From assembly GCA_903862255.1 (NCBI GenBank), contig CAIOXK010000024.1, positions 1 through 46,259 on the forward strand: a stretch of DNA of 46,259 nucleotides. The letters are read 5' to 3'. The notes below the pieces were generated by a model that ran no database searches, was not told where the DNA came from, and worked only from the letters and a program-made list of their open reading frames with translations. The stretch comes from Candidatus Nomurabacteria bacterium (GTDB taxonomy: Bacteria; Patescibacteriota; Minisyncoccia; Phycocordibacterales; UBA9973). A program made the position numbers and the translations under genes. The stretch's first letter is position 1. Every line of letters begins with the position of its first letter. Positions 12,071-43,850 of the stretch are shown in pieces.

Positions 12071-13060
12071 TTACACGTTTTTCACATGTTCAATAATTTC
12101 TTGCCAGATCTCATCACCGCCCATGTCGTGTTCAAAAATAGCATCCTCCGCTTGTAAAAAATAAGCATCCATTGTTTTTTCTACATATGTAAGTGCGCCA
12201 GAATGCCGTAAAACCCGCATTAGTTTTTGCTCTTCATCTTCTGACCACTCTTTAGAAAAATACACATTAAATAGATTACGATCTTCTATACCTGCCTGAT
12301 TAAACATGTACCACGATACTAATGTTTGTTGCCCTTCTTTTATATCATTAAGACAATCTGCAATATCGTCTTGCAATTGAAATGCCATACCCAGATTTAC
12401 AGCATATGACTCAATAAAAGATATATCCCCTTCATCTATACCAGCTAAATACTTACCCATTAGTAGTGGTCTAAAAAATGAATATTGTGCACTTTTAAGG
12501 TATATGCTCCGCAAAATTATTTCCTTTGTAGGGTTTTCATTAGTAATAAGCAAAACATCTAATAACTGCCCGTGGAGCACCTCTGATAGCAATCTTCGAA
12601 ATTCTTTTTTTGTATCATCAATAGTGTACGGTTCAACTATTTCAGCCTGATCGATACATTCTACTGACCATGTTAATACTAAATCTCCGATGAGCATAGC
12701 TACAGACTTACCGATCTCTCTACTATGCTTAAGTTCTGCAACTAAACGATGTAGAGCAACAATACCTCGACGAAAAGATTCATTATCTATAATATCGTCT
12801 TGTATTAGACAAAATAGATGAAGTAGCTCAATACCAGCAAGGAGTGAAAAGATATCGCTTTCACCTCCCTCAGTCATATACCCTACATATGCCATATATG
12901 GACGAAGATACTTACCTCTTTTTGCATACTGAACAATATGTGAACATATCATAGCAATGTCACCGTGACCACTCAGTTGACTAAAATCCTTAATTTTATC
13001 TTCAACCAGTGTACTAAATCTATCTTCGAACCATACTTGAAACTGTTTTAATGTCATCAT
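12071..13060 (-). CDS. Polyprenyl diphosphate synthase (trans-isoprenyl, FPP/GGPP-synthase family)
   Basis: First Asp-rich motif LIQDDIIDNESFRRG and second motif FQLQDDIAD. 329 aa. Confidence 0.85.
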   Translation of the reverse strand: MMTLKQFQVWFEDRFSTLVEDKIKDFSQLSGHGDIAMICSHIVQYAKRGKYLRPYMAYVGYMTEGGESDIFSLLAGIELLHLFCLIQDDIIDNESFRRGIVALHRLVAELKHSREIGKSVAMLIGDLVLTWSVECIDQAEIVEPYTIDDTKKEFRRLLSEVLHGQLLDVLLITNENPTKEIILRSIYLKSAQYSFFRPLLMGKYLAGIDEGDISFIESYAVNLGMAFQLQDDIADCLNDIKEGQQTLVSWYMFNQAGIEDRNLFNVYFSKEWSEDEEQKLMRVLRHSGALTYVEKTMDAYFLQAEDAIFEHDMGGDEIWQEIIEHVKNV

Positions 13061-13120
13061 TCCCTAATAATAAAAAAATAGTGATCAATCTAATCTCTAT
13101 AAAATATAAAGATTGTATAA

Positions 13121-13147
13121 AACAATAGGGGTTTAACCCCTGTTATT
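13121..13147. repeat. REP-like hairpin, left copy (AGGGGTTTAACCCCT); also acts as terminator of the transposase-like gene
   Basis: aacaatAGGGG-TTTAA-CCCCTgttat. On the minus strand the hairpin is followed by TTTTATAC. Confidence 0.8.
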
Positions 13148-13797
13148 TAATTCTTGCCAAGTAATCTATATCTTTTCTTATTATTTTTTACTTCTTCTAA
13201 AACCTGGTATGCATATTTTTTATATTCATCTTTAGTCTCAAACTGTTGCAATATAAGACTATGTTTAGTGCAAATACTTCTACCTTGATACTTATAGTCA
13301 ACATACTGACTCCAGCTTGAATAATATTTATAATTAATCGGGGTTAAACCCCTATTGTTTTCCTGATCATCATTTAAGTTAATATACCCAGAAACATACA
13401 ATAAATATTCATTTGTGTTTACATGTTTCGATTTATAGGTAGCCTCAAATAGCGCACCAGATCGTTCATTTTTATTGTTTAAATATAATGTATAACCACC
13501 CTGTAGTCGCTTCATAAACTCACTTATTCCACCATCAACTTCTTGCTGTATCAAAAAATGAAAATGGTTTGGCTGTAATGAATATGCAAGAAAACTCACT
13601 AACGGATTTTTAATAGCAAAACCATTAAGTCGTATTTGCTTATTAAGGCTTTCAACTGGCTCAATATTATTAAATACTATCAATGCGTCGCTAAATCTTT
13701 GTATATCTAAAAAGTCTAAAAAAATATCTCTCTTATCTACACCTCTGTTGTAAATATGATATATCTCTCCAGTAGTAATATTTTTTGGCTTCCTCAT
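13147..13797 (-). CDS. IS200/RAYT-like HUH-Y1 (tyrosine) transposase family protein
   Basis: GEIYHIYNRGVDKRDIFLD, HUH motif PNHFHFLI, and a C-terminal Tyr in YVSGYINLN..YYSSWSQY. I place the start at ATG 13797; the track start at 13803 is a TTG. Confidence 0.8.
   Translation of the reverse strand: MRKPKNITTGEIYHIYNRGVDKRDIFLDFLDIQRFSDALIVFNNIEPVESLNKQIRLNGFAIKNPLVSFLAYSLQPNHFHFLIQQEVDGGISEFMKRLQGGYTLYLNNKNERSGALFEATYKSKHVNTNEYLLYVSGYINLNDDQENNRGLTPINYKYYSSWSQYVDYKYQGRSICTKHSLILQQFETKDEYKKYAYQVLEEVKNNKKRYRLLGKN
13340..13359. repeat. REP-like hairpin, internal inverted copy inside the transposase-like ORF
   Basis: GGGGTTAAACCCCTATTGTT is the exact reverse complement (20/20) of 13121-13140. 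It is read in frame as NNRGLTPI. Confidence 0.85.
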
Positions 13798-13851
13798 GTG
13801 CAAAATACTGTAACAAATTATCTTTCAAGTTTTTCTTGATAATAAATAAAA

Positions 13852-13875
13852 ACAAAGGGGTTTAACCCCTTTGTT
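13852..13875. terminator. REP-like hairpin, right copy; intrinsic terminator of uvrA
   Basis: Perfect 10-bp stem AACAAAGGGG-TTTAA-CCCCTTTGTT, followed by T-rich tracts on both strands. Confidence 0.8.
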
Positions 13876-13880
13876 TTTAT

Positions 13881-16532
13881 TTATAAAATTTTCTTAAGAT
13901 ATGTTCCGGTGTGAGAATGTTTATTGTTAGCAATTTCCTCTGGTGTGCCCTTTCCTACTACCTTACCACCGTGCACTCCACCCTCTGGGCCGAAATCAAT
14001 CAACCAGTCAGCGGTCTTAATGAGGTCAAGGTTATGCTCAATTACGACAACTGTATTACCTTTTGCAACCAGTCTATTTAATACGCCAATAAGATTTTTG
14101 ACATCGTCATAGTGCAGTCCAACTGTTGGTTCATCGAGTAAGTAAATAGTTTTCTCTAAGTATGGACGATATAGCTCAGATGCGATTTTCACACGCTGTG
14201 CTTCACCACCTGATAATGTTGTTGCAGATTGGCCAAGCTTCACATAATTCAAACCTACATCAGACAATGTTTTCAATCGATCTGAAATTGCTGGAATATC
14301 AGTAAAAAATTCCTGTGCCTCCTCTACAGTAAGCTGTAGGACGTCGTAAATACTTTTCTTTTTGTATTTCACTACCAGAGTCTCCTTATCAAAACGCTTA
14401 CCATTACAAACATCGCACGTTACATAAACAGTTGGGAGAAAGTGCATTTCAACAGCTATTTCTCCATTACCTTCACAAGCTTCACAACGACCACCTTTTA
14501 CGTTAAATGAAAAACGGTTCACTTTCCAGCCACGGAGGCGAGCTTCTTCTGTAGCAGCAAATAGTTCGCGAATATGGGTAAATGCTCCAGTATAGGTAGC
14601 AATGTTTGAACGAGGAGTACGACCAATTGGAGACTGGTCGATCATAATTGCACGAGCAAGATACTCACTGCCAGTAAATGATGCACAGTTAAATACCTTG
14701 GCACTGCGAAGTTTGCGCTCAAAACGAGCCTGCAAATTACTATAAAGTACGTCATACAAGAATGTACTTTTACCTGAACCAGACACGCCAGTAATCGCAA
14801 CTAGTCGCCCCAGCGGCACATCGATATTCAAATTATGAATATTGTGCAAATTTGCTCCAACAATTCTAAGCGTTCCCTTATCTTCACTGCGACGTTTTTC
14901 TGGTACTTCGATTTGCGCCTCCTTACGAAGATATGCAAGTGTACGTGAACCTGAATCATTTTTCTTTGCTGATAATAGTTCATCAAGGTATCCAGATACT
15001 ACTACTTGCCCGCCATGCACGCCTGCTTTTGGGCCAATATCAATAATATAGTCAGATGCATAAATAGTATCTTCATCGTGCTCAACAACAATAATAGTAT
15101 TACCAATATCACGAAGTGCTTCAAGAGTCTTGATCAATCGTTCATTGTCACGTTGGTGCAAACCAATAGTTGGTTCATCAAGTACATACATTGCCCCTAC
15201 TAAACGTGAGCCAAGCTGTGATGCCAAACGAATACGCTGTGCCTCTCCACCAGAGAGCGTATTGGCCGTCCGACTGAGTGCTAAGTATTCTAGTCCTACA
15301 TTCAATAAAAAAGTAAGTCGGTCTTCAATTTCTTTTACAATTACTTTTGCAACTTCTTTATCTTTTGCAGTAAGTTTTAATGAGCCAAAAAAATCAAAGG
15401 CTTCTTCAACTGACATAGCTGTGAGGTCGACAATGTTTGTACCATGCACGCTGCCATCTTTATCTGATTTACTTGCAGACAAAAAAACATTCAACGCTTC
15501 GGGGCGAAGACGCTTGCCATGACATATATCACAGGGTTCTGAGCCACCAAAAAATTTTGTACCTATACCATTACATTCAGGACATGCTCCATACGGACTA
15601 TTAAAAGAAAATAGGCGAGGTTCAATTTCTGGAAAAGAGAAACCATCATTTGGACAAGCAAATTTACTTGAGAGTAGAAATTCCTGTAATAAGTCTGTGT
15701 CCATTGAAAAATCAGGTGACGTTCCAAATGTAATCTGCACTAAACCATCAGCTTCAAGCAGTGCTCGCTCTACTGCCTCAGACAAACGAAGTTCTGCATC
15801 ACGAGGAGTATCTGTAAATTCATGCACAGCAAGTTCGTCCACAAGCACCTCAATAGTGTGCGGAGTAGTTTTATTCATCTCAATTTTTTCGCGGAGGTTT
15901 TTTGTCTTACCGTCTACTCGCACAGTTGAGAAACCGCGACCGAGCAAATCGTACAGTAACTGATAGTACTCACCTTTGCGTCCACGAACAATCGGAGCAT
16001 ACACCTGAATACGAGTATCGTTCCAGGCTACACCCATCACTTCTTTGTTTTTACCTTTTGAAAGTTCTTTGATTTTACCAAGAATAAAACCATTAATTTC
16101 TTCCATTGAAAGTTTCTGAATCAATGTGCCACATACTGGACAATATGCCTTACCTACGCGCGCATAAAGGACGCGCAAGTAGTCGTAGATTTCTGTAATG
16201 GTAGCAACAGTCGAACGAGGATTATTTGATCGAGATTTTTGATCAATTGAAATTGCTGGCGAAAGGCCGGTAATCTCATCAACATCCGGTTTAGGCATTT
16301 GATTTAAAAATTGTCGCGCATACGAGGACAATGACTCAACATAACGACGTTGGCCTTCAGCAAAAATAGTATCAAAGGCAAGAGAACTCTTACCTGACCC
16401 TGACATACCAGTAATAGCCACCATCGCATTACGAGGCATTTCTACTGAAATATTTTTTAAATTATGAGTTCGCGCGCCCTTAACAGTAATAACTTCGGTT
16501 GCACTTCCTATCACTCTGTTTCGTTTTTCCAC
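13881..16532 (-). CDS. uvrA: Excinuclease ABC subunit A
   Basis: KGARTHNLKNISVEMPRN, two ABC ATPase modules (GMSGSGKSSL, GVSGSGKST, LSGGEAQR twice) and Zn-finger Cys clusters. The start is GTG 16532, or possibly GTG 16514. Confidence 0.95.
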   Translation of the reverse strand: MEKRNRVIGSATEVITVKGARTHNLKNISVEMPRNAMVAITGMSGSGKSSLAFDTIFAEGQRRYVESLSSYARQFLNQMPKPDVDEITGLSPAISIDQKSRSNNPRSTVATITEIYDYLRVLYARVGKAYCPVCGTLIQKLSMEEINGFILGKIKELSKGKNKEVMGVAWNDTRIQVYAPIVRGRKGEYYQLLYDLLGRGFSTVRVDGKTKNLREKIEMNKTTPHTIEVLVDELAVHEFTDTPRDAELRLSEAVERALLEADGLVQITFGTSPDFSMDTDLLQEFLLSSKFACPNDGFSFPEIEPRLFSFNSPYGACPECNGIGTKFFGGSEPCDICHGKRLRPEALNVFLSASKSDKDGSVHGTNIVDLTAMSVEEAFDFFGSLKLTAKDKEVAKVIVKEIEDRLTFLLNVGLEYLALSRTANTLSGGEAQRIRLASQLGSRLVGAMYVLDEPTIGLHQRDNERLIKTLEALRDIGNTIIVVEHDEDTIYASDYIIDIGPKAGVHGGQVVVSGYLDELLSAKKNDSGSRTLAYLRKEAQIEVPEKRRSEDKGTLRIVGANLHNIHNLNIDVPLGRLVAITGVSGSGKSTFLYDVLYSNLQARFERKLRSAKVFNCASFTGSEYLARAIMIDQSPIGRTPRSNIATYTGAFTHIRELFAATEEARLRGWKVNRFSFNVKGGRCEACEGNGEIAVEMHFLPTVYVTCDVCNGKRFDKETLVVKYKKKSIYDVLQLTVEEAQEFFTDIPAISDRLKTLSDVGLNYVKLGQSATTLSGGEAQRVKIASELYRPYLEKTIYLLDEPTVGLHYDDVKNLIGVLNRLVAKGNTVVVIEHNLDLIKTADWLIDFGPEGGVHGGKVVGKGTPEEIANNKHSHTGTYLKKIL

Positions 16533-16538
16533 GGATCA

Positions 16539-16557
16539 ATTATAACACGAAAGTCAA
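16539..16557 (-). promoter_or_regulatory. uvrA promoter region: TTGACT-N7-TGtTATAAT-N6-GTG
   Basis: The minus strand reads agtTTGACTttcgtgtTATAATtgatccGTG. The TTGAC box is only 7 nt from the -10, too close to act as a -35. Confidence 0.55.
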
Positions 16558-16571
16558 ACTCTGGCGACCTG

Positions 16572-16580
16572 TGGTATTAT
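16572..16580 (+). promoter_or_regulatory. Extended -10 promoter (TGgTATTAT), 9 nt upstream of ATG 16590
   Basis: cctgTGgTATTATtaccaacatATG. Confidence 0.5.
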
Positions 16581-16589
16581 TACCAACAT

Positions 16590-17042
16590 ATGAACATACC
16601 TCGTGTAGATCACATGGCAATCAGATTTTTTCGCCATATTAGCATTCCACTTGCCCGTATCTCACTTTTTGTTATTTATTTTTGGTTCGGTATATTAAAA
16701 GTTATTGGACTTTCGCCCGCATCAGGACTTGTATATGCACTGTATAATCAAACAATTCCATTTGTGCCATTTCATGCATTCTATTTAGCATTTGCATTAT
16801 TTGAGTGTTTAATTGGTATTCTTTTTCTCATCAAGGGTGCAGAACGTATTGTTATTCCATTACTATTGGCACACTTAATTACTACCATCTTGCCACTTAT
16901 CTTTCTTCCTGATATGGCATGGCAACACTGGTTTGTACCAACTCTTGAAGGTCAATACATCATCAAAAATTTAGCATTGATCACTGCAGCAATTGCAATT
17001 GCTGCACACCTTCACCCTCTGCCACATAAAATTGAGAAATAA
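16590..17042 (+). CDS. Small integral membrane protein (tentatively DoxX/DUF417-like)
   Basis: 150 aa from ATG 16590, with 4 TM segments. The longer track ORF (from 16464) overlaps the uvrA 5' end and the promoter region. Confidence 0.6.
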   Translation: MNIPRVDHMAIRFFRHISIPLARISLFVIYFWFGILKVIGLSPASGLVYALYNQTIPFVPFHAFYLAFALFECLIGILFLIKGAERIVIPLLLAHLITTILPLIFLPDMAWQHWFVPTLEGQYIIKNLALITAAIAIAAHLHPLPHKIEK

Positions 17043-17068
17043 AAAAATGGGGCCAGACCCCATTTTTT
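17041..17068. terminator. Bidirectional terminator between convergent genes; GGGG-N5-CCCC type hairpin
   Basis: AAAAAAATGGGG-CCAGA-CCCCATTTTTT. Confidence 0.8.
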
Positions 17069-19124
17069 ATGTATTAATATATGTTCTCTCTCGCAACACC
17101 TTAATTTCATCTCGCAATATTGCAGCTGTTTCGAAATCGAGCAACTTTACTGACTCTTTCATCTCATCTTCTTTCATTTTAATTAATTTTTCGATAGGAT
17201 TACGCTTGCCCTTCTTCCCTTTCATATCTTTTTCAAGTTGCGCGAAGAGTTCGATATCAAGCTCAAGCTCTGCATTCACAGCCTTGGCATGAGGACTTTC
17301 CATTCCCTGTGTGATATCAAGAATTTTCTTTTGAATAGTTTTTGGTGTAATGCCGTGCTTTTTATTATATGCCAACTGAATATTACGACGACGAAGTGTT
17401 TCTGCCATCGCACGTTCCATTGAACCAGTCATATTATCAGCGTACAAAATAACACGACCATTTGAGTTACGAGCAGCGCGACCAATTGTTTGAATTAATG
17501 ACACTTCGCTACGCAAAAACCCTTCCTTGTCAGCATCGAGAATACCGATCAATGTTACTTCTGGCATATCAAGCCCTTCGCGGAGCAAGTTAACACCGAT
17601 CAACATATCAAATTCACCCTTACGAAACTGAGTAATAATTTTAATACGATCAATTGTCTTAATGTCACTGTGAATATACGCAGCCTTGATTTTCTTTTCC
17701 TTCAAATAATCTGTCAGGTCTTCAGCCATACGCTTTGTTAGTGTCGTTGCAAGTACGCGACCGCCTTTTGCAATTTCAATTTCTGCCTCATTGATAAAAT
17801 CATGCACTTGTCCGTGATAGTCACCATTTTCAAGAATAGGCCGTACGTCCACCAGCGGATCAACAAGACCAGTAGGTCGAATAATTTGTTCTACCACTTT
17901 TGTCGCATGCTCTAGTTCATACTTGCCTGGCGTAGCAGACACAAAAATTGTATTACCGATGCGCTCTTTAAATTCTTCAAACTTCAATGGGCGGTTATCC
18001 TTTGCACTTGGCAAGCGAAAACCAAAATCCACCAGAGTTTGCTTGCGCGATGCATCACCCGCATACATACCGTGCAATTGTGGAAGTGTTACGTGTGACT
18101 CATCGATAAAAAGCATGAAGTCTGGCGACCCGTCAGCCTTATGTGGGAAGTATGACAACAAAGTCTCTGGTGGTTCTCCAGCTGATTTGCCTGACATATG
18201 ACGAGAGTAGTTTTCGATACCAGAACAGTATCCGATCTCTCGAATCATAGCGAGGTCATAACTTGTACGACGCTTAATGCGCTCTGCTTCAAGTAACTTT
18301 CCTTCTAATTCAAAATGCTTCAACTGTTGATCGAGCTCATGCTTAATATCAGCGATAGCTCGCTCACGTTCGTTTTCATTGGTAATGAAGTGCTTTGTTG
18401 GGAAAATAAAAATAGTTTCTTCGTCATTTATAATACGAGATGATACTGGATCAATTTTCAAAATACTACTCACACTGTTTCCTGAAAATTCAATTGAATA
18501 TTGAAAAGTGTCAGAGATTGGCATTACGTCAACCTTATTTCCTAGCGCACGAAATTGTCCTGACTCTAAATCAGCGTTTGTACGAGTGAAGTGAATACTG
18601 ACTAACTTCTCCATAAACTCTGTACGAGAAATTTTCATACCTTTCTCTACTTTGAAATTTTCTTTTTCATACTCAACTGGAGAGCCCAAGCCGTAAATAC
18701 AGGAAACTGATGCAACAATAATCACATCATTACGAGTAAGCAATGATTGTGTTGTGGCGTGTCGAAGCCGATCAATTTCTTTGTTGATCTGCGCATCTTT
18801 CTCAATGAAAGTGTCTGTTACGGGCATGTATGCCTCTGGCTGATAGTAGTCGTAATACGATACGAAATAGTGCACAGCATTGTTTGGAAAAAATTCCTTA
18901 AACTCAGAAGCTAGTTGAGCGGCCAATGTTTTATTGTGAGCGATAACAAGGGTTGGTTTTTGAATTTCTTTGATGATATTAGCCATCGTAAACGTCTTAC
19001 CAGTCGCAGTTCCACCCAACAGTGTCTGAAACTGCTCGCCGTCTTTTAGGCCTTGTAATAAGCCTTTTATTGCCTTCGGCTGGTCGCCTGCAGGTAGGTA
19101 GTGATCTGATAACTCAAATTTCAT
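17067..19124 (-). CDS. uvrB: Excinuclease ABC subunit B
   Basis: GGTATGKTFTMANII, helicase motifs, and a C-terminal UVR domain (LDFETAAILRDEIKVLRE). 685 aa. Confidence 0.95.
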   Translation of the reverse strand: MKFELSDHYLPAGDQPKAIKGLLQGLKDGEQFQTLLGGTATGKTFTMANIIKEIQKPTLVIAHNKTLAAQLASEFKEFFPNNAVHYFVSYYDYYQPEAYMPVTDTFIEKDAQINKEIDRLRHATTQSLLTRNDVIIVASVSCIYGLGSPVEYEKENFKVEKGMKISRTEFMEKLVSIHFTRTNADLESGQFRALGNKVDVMPISDTFQYSIEFSGNSVSSILKIDPVSSRIINDEETIFIFPTKHFITNENERERAIADIKHELDQQLKHFELEGKLLEAERIKRRTSYDLAMIREIGYCSGIENYSRHMSGKSAGEPPETLLSYFPHKADGSPDFMLFIDESHVTLPQLHGMYAGDASRKQTLVDFGFRLPSAKDNRPLKFEEFKERIGNTIFVSATPGKYELEHATKVVEQIIRPTGLVDPLVDVRPILENGDYHGQVHDFINEAEIEIAKGGRVLATTLTKRMAEDLTDYLKEKKIKAAYIHSDIKTIDRIKIITQFRKGEFDMLIGVNLLREGLDMPEVTLIGILDADKEGFLRSEVSLIQTIGRAARNSNGRVILYADNMTGSMERAMAETLRRRNIQLAYNKKHGITPKTIQKKILDITQGMESPHAKAVNAELELDIELFAQLEKDMKGKKGKRNPIEKLIKMKEDEMKESVKLLDFETAAILRDEIKVLRERTYINT

Positions 19125-31923: not shown

Positions 31924-31936
31924 GGGGACTGTCCCC
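31924..31936. repeat. GGGG-ACTGT-CCCC hairpin, intergenic copy
   Basis: The 16-mer GGGGACTGTCCCCTTT is identical to 43600-43615 inside trmD. Confidence 0.8.
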
Positions 31937-31952
31937 TTTCTCAAGAAATAAT

Positions 31953-43115: not shown

Positions 43116-43850
43116 TTATATGTCAAAATTTTTTTGGTTTTTACGCCACTCTTCAATCTTCTTATGATCTCCTGAGATCAATACCGGTGGTACAGCGTAT
43201 TTTTTAGGTTTAACTATTTTTGTAGTCTTGCCTGATTTTGCGGATGTGGGCGTGCCCCGCATAGTTTTGGCGGAGTGGGGCCATACAAGAACCTCTGGAC
43301 GAGTAAATACGCGAGGACTAGCATTTCGCAACTCCTCTACTGATTCGTGTGTGCCAAGTACTCCGGGGATCTGACGACAAATAGCATCTGTCATAACCAA
43401 TGCTGGCAATTCACCTCCTGTTAATACAAAGTCACCGATTGATACTTCTTCCGCTTTCAAGATAGTTCGTACGCGATCATCTACTCCTTCATACCTTCCA
43501 CATATAAACACAACATCACTATATGATTTCGCCCATTTTGCCGCCATGGTATTGGTAAACATGGCACCAGTCGGCGAAAGCATTACTACTTTTACCTTAG
43601 GGGACTGTCCCCTTTTTAAAGATAATTTCAATTTATTATAGGCACGTAGAATTGGCTCTGGTGTCATAACCATTCCTGGACCACCGCCATATGGGCGTTC
43701 ATCAACTTTCTTATGTTTATCCAGCGTATAATCACGGATATTTTTCACATCAAAAGACACGAGCTTCTTTTCAGATGCGCGCCTCAACATTGCTTCGCTG
43801 AGATAGCTTTCGATCATCTCTGGGAAAATTGTTAGAAAGTGAAATTTCAT
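43116..43850 (-). CDS. trmD: tRNA (guanine37-N1)-methyltransferase
   Basis: ERPYGGGPGMVM, ICGRYEGVDDRV, SIGDFVLTGGELPALVMTDA. Carries an insertion of about 25 aa before VPPVLISGDH. Confidence 0.93.
   Translation of the reverse strand: MKFHFLTIFPEMIESYLSEAMLRRASEKKLVSFDVKNIRDYTLDKHKKVDERPYGGGPGMVMTPEPILRAYNKLKLSLKRGQSPKVKVVMLSPTGAMFTNTMAAKWAKSYSDVVFICGRYEGVDDRVRTILKAEEVSIGDFVLTGGELPALVMTDAICRQIPGVLGTHESVEELRNASPRVFTRPEVLVWPHSAKTMRGTPTSAKSGKTTKIVKPKKYAVPPVLISGDHKKIEEWRKNQKNFDI
43600..43612. repeat. GGGG-ACTGT-CCCC hairpin inside the trmD coding sequence
   Basis: Read on the minus strand as K-R-G-Q-S-P-K. The 16-mer is identical to 31924-31939. Confidence 0.8.

Follow-up and report, generated by a model that had tools for sequence, protein, structure and literature searches.

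A probable REPtron-like cassette in Patescibacteria: the gene of a RAYT-like Y1/HUH protein and its cognate hairpins

We looked at a gene for a RAYT-like Y1/HUH protein and at the hairpins that accompany it in a Candidatus Nomurabacteria bacterium (contig CAIOXK010000024.1). The window, meaning the whole stretch of DNA analysed, is a single contig stretch of 46,259 nt, and copy counts for the window genome cover these 46 kb. The gene (13147-13797, minus strand) has one copy of a hairpin upstream, a second inside its own open reading frame (ORF) and a third just past its stop codon. The locus is probably a fairly degenerate, AT-rich member of a Patescibacteria-wide cassette that resembles a REPtron (REP, repetitive extragenic palindrome), that is, the gene of a RAYT-like Y1/HUH enzyme of single-stranded DNA together with its cognate hairpins. 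The hairpins are cognate elements of the gene and not plain terminators; a first-pass annotation made from the sequence alone had proposed that they belong to the gene, and this holds, since each locus's own variant recurs upstream, inside and downstream of the gene in about 70 related loci. Across these loci the architecture is fixed, the copies of one locus evolve in concert and the stems covary.

The gene and its three hairpins

The ORF list, Pfam, the homologue alignment and an AlphaFold2 model all bear on the gene, which encodes 216 aa and runs from an ATG at 13797 to a stop codon at 13147-13149, with an alternative TTG start at 13803 in the ORF list. The Y1 signatures first reported for this ORF can be read directly in the protein as YHIYNRG, PNHFHFLI and YVSGYINLN, and the gene strand is the minus strand. 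The codons at 13558-13566 specify the HUH motif (H78-F79-H80), and the one at 13384-13386 specifies Tyr138, which is presumably the catalytic residue. When the protein was compared with Pfam, as had been proposed, Y1_Tnp (PF01797) was matched at 34.1 bits for a cut-off of 23 (E 3.4e-8) over residues 67-140, reaching profile position 119 of 121, and the same profile was matched by 24 of the 24 relatives tested. N77, H78, H80, Y131 and Y138, which include the HUH histidines and the Tyr, are invariant in a 102-sequence homologue alignment. A sequence-profile search of the PDB returned just a marginal ISDra2 match at the HUH motif, so that a fold search was needed. The AlphaFold2 model of the window protein has a predicted local distance difference test score (pLDDT) of 87, and its best Foldseek match is 4ER8, the E. 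coli TnpA_REP protein bound to a REP hairpin (E = 5e-6), followed by the TnpA proteins of IS608 and ISDra2; 4ER8, 2VJV and 2XQC were all matched with probability 1.0. Profile scans detected no Bac_DnaA_C or helix-turn-helix tail in the window protein or in the 24 relatives. The gene is a genuine member of the Y1/HUH family.

The sequence AGGGGTTTAACCCCT is present at 13127-13141 and 13856-13870, with its core GGGGTTTAACCCC at 13128-13140 and 13857-13869, and the core recurs with a complementary loop at 13340-13352. When up to 2 mismatches are allowed, GGGGTTTAACCCC occurs at these three sites alone in 46 kb, giving 6 strand-hits where 0.44 are expected; none of 100 shuffles reached 6 strand-hits. 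Other GGGG-N5-CCCC sites in the window have different loops. The upstream copy was at first described as a perfect 10-bp stem, which is in fact the centre of a 43-nt perfect palindrome (13842-13884) with a 20-bp stem around the core at 13857-13869. This palindrome folds as DNA with -18.6 kcal/mol (z = -8.2), it is centred 66 nt ahead of the ATG, and it contains the stop codon of uvrA (13881-13883), so that the end of uvrA and the upstream hairpin overlap. The downstream copy (13119-13149, core 13128-13140) is centred 12 nt past the stop codon of the Y1 gene. The in-ORF copy (13331-13361, core 13340-13352) is inverted with respect to both flanking copies: 13340-13359 is indeed the exact reverse complement of 13121-13140 (20/20), and the inverted match grows to 31 nt at 90% identity when 13119-13149 is compared with 13331-13361. 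It is translated in frame as NRGLTPI (residues ~148-154), directly after the Tyr motif YINLN, and in the AlphaFold2 model these residues are the sole internal segment with a pLDDT below 50. Chance or coding constraint as the origin of the internal copy was ruled out by the shuffles, by the 31-nt inverted match and by control windows within the family genes.

Both outer copies were flagged by a terminator scan, each with a T-rich tail, the upstream copy being terminator-like for uvrA and the downstream copy for the Y1 gene; the internal copy is not terminator-like. The suggestion that the outer hairpins double as terminators in this AT-rich genome is in line with this. A second, independent assembly (L001, Logan ERR4193932) is identical over its overlap with window positions 13050-13895, and thus the three-hairpin locus is not an assembly artefact. 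This sole other assembly shows no strain variation.

Hairpins across related loci

For the comparison, 80 related loci were drawn from GTDB species genomes, and the counts below use 69, 70 or 73 of them. Hairpins were detected by position, zone by zone in 70 loci, without seeding by the internal copy. An upstream hairpin was found in 60 of the 70 loci, a first internal site at about +187 nt in 36 (peptide LGGETPKS, before the HUH motif, residues ~57-66), a second internal site at about +450 nt in 51 (after the catalytic Tyr, residues ~145-155) and a post-stop hairpin, most often centred at +13, in 54. The first internal site lies between helix B and strand 2 of the protein, the second after the Tyr helix. 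When two zones of one locus are compared, 90-92% of the pairs agree fully in the inner 6-nt arm, as opposed to 10-13% of pairs from different loci, and the loop is the same or inverted in ~85% within a locus against ~13% between loci. Loop orientation is near-random among external copies. Internal copies never carry TGA or TAA as a loop (0/78), and 14 external copies have such loops. The internal copy of the window is therefore inverted because only the TTA (Leu) orientation avoids a stop, the flipped loop TAA being one, and the special meaning initially given to its inversion falls away.

The window peptide NRGLTPI aligns with a conserved family peptide, HQLGGxTxKLV, whose coding DNA forms a hairpin in most genes, for example CACCAACTTGGGGGT-GAA-ACCCCCAAGTTGGTG. 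Within the DNA coding for NLN..SSW, a perfect stem of at least 7 bp (18 bp at most) is present in 57 of 73 genes; control windows in these genes mostly give 4-6 bp, the exceptions being another internal site and upstream copies that lie in ORF extensions. The centre of the palindrome is one codon, around which His codons pair with Val codons, Gln with Leu and Leu with Lys, and the two Gly codons contribute their silent third bases, whose partners are the first bases of the Thr/Ala and the Pro/Ser/Ala codons. In 53 aligned hairpins, 17 of 18 stem pairs have changed on both sides; one pair, between a Gly third base and a Pro/Ser/Ala first base, is CG in 27, AU in 14 and GC in 11 hairpins, and another is UA in 39 and CG in 14. 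The outer stem of internal copies includes some U-G pairs, at one position in 12 of the 53 hairpins. The compensatory double-sided changes indicate selection on nucleic-acid structure, with the peptide following from the structure. Each copy also lengthens its own stem with private complementary flanks. Rfam, even at permissive E-values, gave just sub-threshold generic hairpin matches.

Some further observations concern these copies. In 29 of 47 loci the post-stop hairpin shares the reading frame of the second internal copy and, translated past the stop, would read ..LGGxTPK; as a signal this frame link was rejected, the enrichment being just modest and probably phylogenetic. The C-terminus of one homologue, P0137, appears to read into the post-stop copy. 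One locus, L018 (CAYPVT010000007.1), holds two hairpin types, GGCGGT-GAA upstream and at the first internal site and GGAGGT-TCA at the second internal site and downstream, which hints at modular replacement or recombination; in a segment-wise BLAST of this locus, protein segments were not tied to hairpin type.

The upstream copy has a particular position. A TAnnnT hexamer whose end lies 6-8 nt ahead of the ATG is present in 54 of 69 loci (background, about 1.5 loci per position), 42 of these 54 have the TG of an extended -10 element (family pattern TGnTAnnnT), and in the loci with the closest hairpin this TG is the end of the hairpin foot (..CCAAGTG). A Shine-Dalgarno-like motif was found in just 4 of 69 loci, and with a -10 box 6-8 nt from the ATG the mRNAs are thus apparently leaderless. 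In most relatives the upstream hairpin fills the -35/spacer region, as in TTGGCG-N17-TAGAAT of L004. Lying ahead of a leaderless -10 box, this copy is in untranscribed promoter DNA, and the element shared by all copies therefore most likely acts as DNA. In the window, a candidate extended -10 element, TGTTACAGT, is predicted from the sequence at 13807-13815 on the minus (gene) strand; it ends 9 nt before the ATG, off the canonical family spacing. In eight loci (L007, L008, L017, L019, L020, L031, L040 and L050) a DnaA-box-like sequence, TTATCCAC(A/T), directly borders the upstream hairpin at its 5' foot, about -51 relative to the ATG; 10 of its 69 matches in 410 kb lie at -90 to -20 of the start, mostly at -50 to -53.

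The family to which the gene belongs is large. A word-indexed search with the window protein gave 2245 homologues; among the 120 matches listed, lengths are ~200-240 aa, the few named ones are proteins of Patescibacteria metagenome-assembled genomes (MAGs) called "transposase" or "RayT", and the closest is 54% identical to the window protein by alignment. A profile search of 1.84 billion cluster representatives returned 1132 clusters (50% identity) at E<=1e-30 and 11664 at E<=1e-10. Such a system had been expected to be unusual in the Candidate Phyla Radiation (CPR); it is instead a very large Patescibacteria family. Several genomes hold two copies of the family gene. Paralogues from a single MAG share 45-71% identity and have a separate hairpin variant each, and the most similar of the 70 loci reach 88% identity. 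The genomic surroundings are not conserved: uvrA and polyprenyl synthase are neighbours of the gene at none of the other loci, and the comparison of this synteny called for by the first-pass annotation found none conserved in relatives. A search of the IMG/VR viral contigs gave no relatives of the family, by which phage carriage was ruled out, and a systematic blastn search of the flanks for partial gene duplicates or circle-junction remnants found nothing beyond hairpins. In L010, a 22-nt stretch ahead of the upstream hairpin resembles the 3' end of the gene. In a distant subfamily (P0208, P0245, P0252 and P0261) the Tyr is followed by YINANAEIHG...W.WCSY, without the palindrome-encoded peptide there, and 40-60 aa low-complexity inserts stand at the first internal site, which may be a general insertion hotspot.

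Solo hairpins are also found away from the genes. The flanks of the relatives (268 kb) contain 8 further locus-specific copies, about 1 per 30 kb. A metagenome scan for CACTTGGNGGTNNNACCNCCAAGTG hit at least 120 contigs; the matches listed comprise 60 beside a family gene, 56 without such a gene in the 800 nt to each side and 36 unclassed, and among them the hairpin variant of a gene agreed with that of a distant copy on the same contig in 3 of 3 cases. A solo copy is in frame in an RNase HII gene (L104:2246-2270, peptide TWGSDPQV), and two are in frame in the gene of a 555-aa LTD/PKD-domain protein (L135:1392-1416 and 2093-2117, peptide HLGVRPPS). REP-like spread thus exists in the family, at a low level. 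The further copies foreseen beyond the locus were found in relatives, as dispersed solos, and not in the 46 kb of the window. Some solo hairpins (L124, L195, L134, L137, L152 and L164) are compound, with partial arms nested or repeated beside a full copy, for example ..ccgcCACTTGGCGGTTAAACCGCCAAGTGgcggattaaccgccaa.., and it looks as if copies insert into or beside existing copies.

Possible mechanism and competing explanations

The fold match suggests how such a cassette could work. Just as E. coli TnpA_REP recognises REPs, the protein would recognise the hairpin when it is extruded as single-stranded DNA, and would nick and rejoin DNA there. This nicking and rejoining, or short-patch gene conversion, may keep the copies of one locus identical and seed solo copies. 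In most relatives the promoter-embedded copy may give the protein a handle on its own transcription, and the in-frame copies may persist because the surface loop in which they lie is disordered. The outer two copies of the window would, in addition, terminate uvrA and the Y1 gene.

Several points weigh against a REPtron-like cassette. We infer binding and cleavage of the cognate hairpin by the family protein from fold similarity only, and selection on a double-stranded operator could also yield locus-wide co-variation. The 53 aligned hairpins (A4) were picked for a stem of at least 7 bp, by which the percentage of paired positions is inflated. In the window itself, the internal and downstream copies each form a weak hairpin when folded separately (-5.2 and -5.8 kcal/mol, with z of about -2 and -1.4), the upstream copy, 66 nt from the ATG, lies outside the promoter position of the relatives, and there is no fourth copy in 46 kb, so that REP-type proliferation is not shown for the window genome. 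The NCBIfam family NF047646 (REP_Tyr_transpos) is matched by all 24 relatives tested (best E-value 5e-9); the window protein scores 23.2 bits against its equivalog cut-off of 80. Finally, in the copies and flanks that were read, the Patescibacteria hairpins are without the 5' GT[AG]G tag of REPtrons and have (C)ACTTGG.. or A(A/T/C)AGGGG.. as feet. Of the RAYT identity given to the gene from the start, Y1/HUH membership and the fold match with 4ER8 are borne out; membership of the canonical RAYTs is not supported by the NCBIfam cut-off, the GT[AG]G tag or the Y...NP motif.

A further reading of the in-frame hairpins goes beyond the cassette. It is possible, and we think rather unlikely, that they are functional self-targets, in which case the coding sequence would have been shaped by the enzyme's own DNA site, HQLGGxTxKLV would be a by-product of a codon-level palindrome, and through four hairpins of one sequence, one in the promoter, two in frame and one past the stop, the HUH enzyme could sense its own gene or rearrange it. 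This could go through hairpin-to-hairpin strand exchange that removes in-frame modules, or through replication-coupled autoregulation. If true, a self-limiting REP/RAYT system would have been maintained across an entire bacterial radiation.

The presence of the upstream palindrome in the -35/spacer region of most loci would also suit a domesticated DNA-binding regulator, which we regard as improbable. The palindromes would then be double-stranded operators, with a dimer repressing its own gene at the promoter, the other copies acting as auxiliary operators or roadblocks, the solos forming a small regulon, and no cleavage. Locus-specific co-variation fits co-evolution with a recognition surface, and the low dispersal fits as well. 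However, the HUH histidines and the Tyr are invariant in the 102 sequences, which argues for retained catalysis, and the known relatives (4ER8, IS608) bind single-stranded hairpins and not duplex DNA. Moreover, the lengthening of stems by private complementary flanks points to selection on hairpin formation and not on a fixed duplex sequence.

It is very improbable that the locus is an autonomous IS200-like insertion sequence, with a mobile hairpin-to-hairpin unit of ~755 bp, outer hairpins as subterminal ends and an incidental internal copy. Its size and subterminal hairpins do resemble IS200/IS605, the fold matches the TnpA proteins of IS608 and ISDra2, the genomic context is not conserved, GC content dips over the gene and several genomes hold two copies. 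Against this, no near-identical copies were found, paralogues in one MAG being only 45-71% identical with different hairpins and no two of the 70 loci exceeding 88%; the Tyr motif is Y-x-N-L-N (class-2/RAYT-like) and not the Y...Q of IS200 (PMC6006769, Table 1); and the searches of IMG/VR for relatives and of the flanks for partial gene duplicates were both negative.

That the outer hairpins are plain intrinsic terminators, and that the internal one affects mRNA stability, causes pausing or is a coincidence, all unrelated to the protein, has hardly any chance of being right: the T-rich tails of both flagged outer window hairpins and the U-G pairs at one stem position would agree with it, whereas the internal and downstream window copies match 20/20 (31 nt at 90%), the upstream copy of the family precedes a leaderless -10 box and is hence untranscribed, most downstream copies in GC-richer relatives are without T-runs, no Rfam match rises above threshold, and hairpin identity follows the gene and not the genome, as paralogues differ. 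All three explanations are less well supported than a REPtron-like cassette.

Relation to described systems and further features of the window

REPtrons are well documented: a RAYT gene stands between cognate REPs, and every paralogue goes with a separate REP family. REPs that lie in frame within genes are known as well (PMC3733652). With the REPtrons of the E. coli yafM type (4ER8; TnpA_Y1 class 2, PMC6006769) the Patescibacteria cassette has in common the Y1/HUH fold, a gene flanked by cognate hairpins, an own hairpin family for each paralogue, low copy number, divergent paralogues, and solo copies, some of them inside genes. Class 2 is marked by Y...NP as its Tyr motif and by a GT[AG]G guide 5' at the foot of the hairpin (PMC6006769); the Patescibacteria family has Y-[VI]-N-L-N-[DN] instead, its hairpins have long, almost perfect stems and loops of 3 nt, and its copies stand at fixed sites in the promoter, in the ORF and after the stop, with low dispersal. 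From the systems described before, the family differs in phylum, motif set, hairpin type, the fixed and conserved in-frame sites and the promoter-embedded copy. No open-access paper was found that links REP/RAYT with CPR or Patescibacteria.

In-frame REPs inside a RAYT gene have been described only for TnpA_Y1 subclass 2.4, which is group 4 of Bertels (PMC6006769). Common to both is an enzyme's own hairpin within its own unbroken reading frame, in a peripheral, structurally tolerant region. The in-frame position of subclass 2.4 is other than in the Patescibacteria family, whose two sites are fixed and deeply conserved; the motifs are NH[IFV]H / WQ / YIxNNP in the former and NHFH / FQ / YxNLN with an SSW tail in the latter, and the host phylum differs too. 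By insert position and motifs, then, the Patescibacteria family falls outside subclass 2.4. The closest motif set, in a comparison of motifs only, is that of the second variant of subclass 2.1, or TIRYT (PMC6006769; PMC3733652), with NH[YF]H, FQ, Y[IV]HLNP, an SS-containing tail and ~220-240 aa (Quentin et al. 2018, PMC6006769, Table 1). Subclass 2.1 relatives are reported with a DnaA_C-like tail, and the subclass without REP-like hairpins, some members having only terminal inverted repeats, unlike the Patescibacteria family with its hairpins.

With the TnpA of IS200/IS605 the family shares the HUH-Tyr fold, subterminal hairpins and a unit of ~0.7 kb. It differs from these elements, which have the Y...Q motif, identical multi-copy elements, a frequent tnpB partner and no in-ORF hairpins: the paralogues are divergent (45-71% identity), the motif is YxNLN, and the neighbours in the window are uvrA and polyprenyl synthase, not tnpB. 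Rickettsia palindromic elements and intragenic REPs (PMC3733652) are likewise palindromes translated in frame as short peptides within otherwise normal proteins, and for RPE-1 the description is of palindromic inserts of greater length (PMC3733652). Compared with the Rickettsia elements, HQLGGxTxKLV is a codon-level palindrome with a one-codon loop, and it is found in the presumed mobilising enzyme itself. We know of no dedicated enzyme for RPE-1 elements.

The function of RAYTs and their tie to REP hairpins are unsettled, and the link is unusually explicit in the Patescibacteria, an entire radiation with reduced genomes, where 3-4 private copies per gene co-vary as a set. The system is compact and testable: a protein of ~220 aa, a DNA hairpin of ~25 nt and natural specificity variants, paralogue pairs included. 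It is a clear case of selection on DNA structure dictating amino acids. CPR genes annotated as "transposase" in many genomes are probably not ordinary insertion sequences, and where a CPR protein contains a short peptide like LGGxTPK, this can be a footprint of these hairpins.

In the window, the Y1 gene lies between uvrA (13881-16532, minus strand) and a polyprenyl synthase gene (12071-13060, minus strand; family by Pfam). GC content over the gene is 29-30% (12900-13800), compared with 35-42% for the genes next to it. The ~10 kb around the Y1 gene include uvrC, uvrA and uvrB. A 27-nt hairpin, AAAAAATGGGGTCTGGCCCCATTTTTT, stands at 17042-17068 between a convergent ORF (16464-17042) and uvrB (17067-19124); it resembles a bidirectional terminator and has a GGGG..CCCC core with a loop unlike that of the Y1-gene hairpins. 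Another palindromic repeat, GGGGACTGTCCCCTTT, occurs twice (31924-31939 and 43600-43615, 16/16 identical), one copy between convergent genes and the other inside the trmD ORF (43116-43850, minus strand; Pfam tRNA_m1G_MT), where its in-frame translation is KRGQSPK. This repeat may represent a further hairpin family whose copies likewise come to lie in frame within genes.

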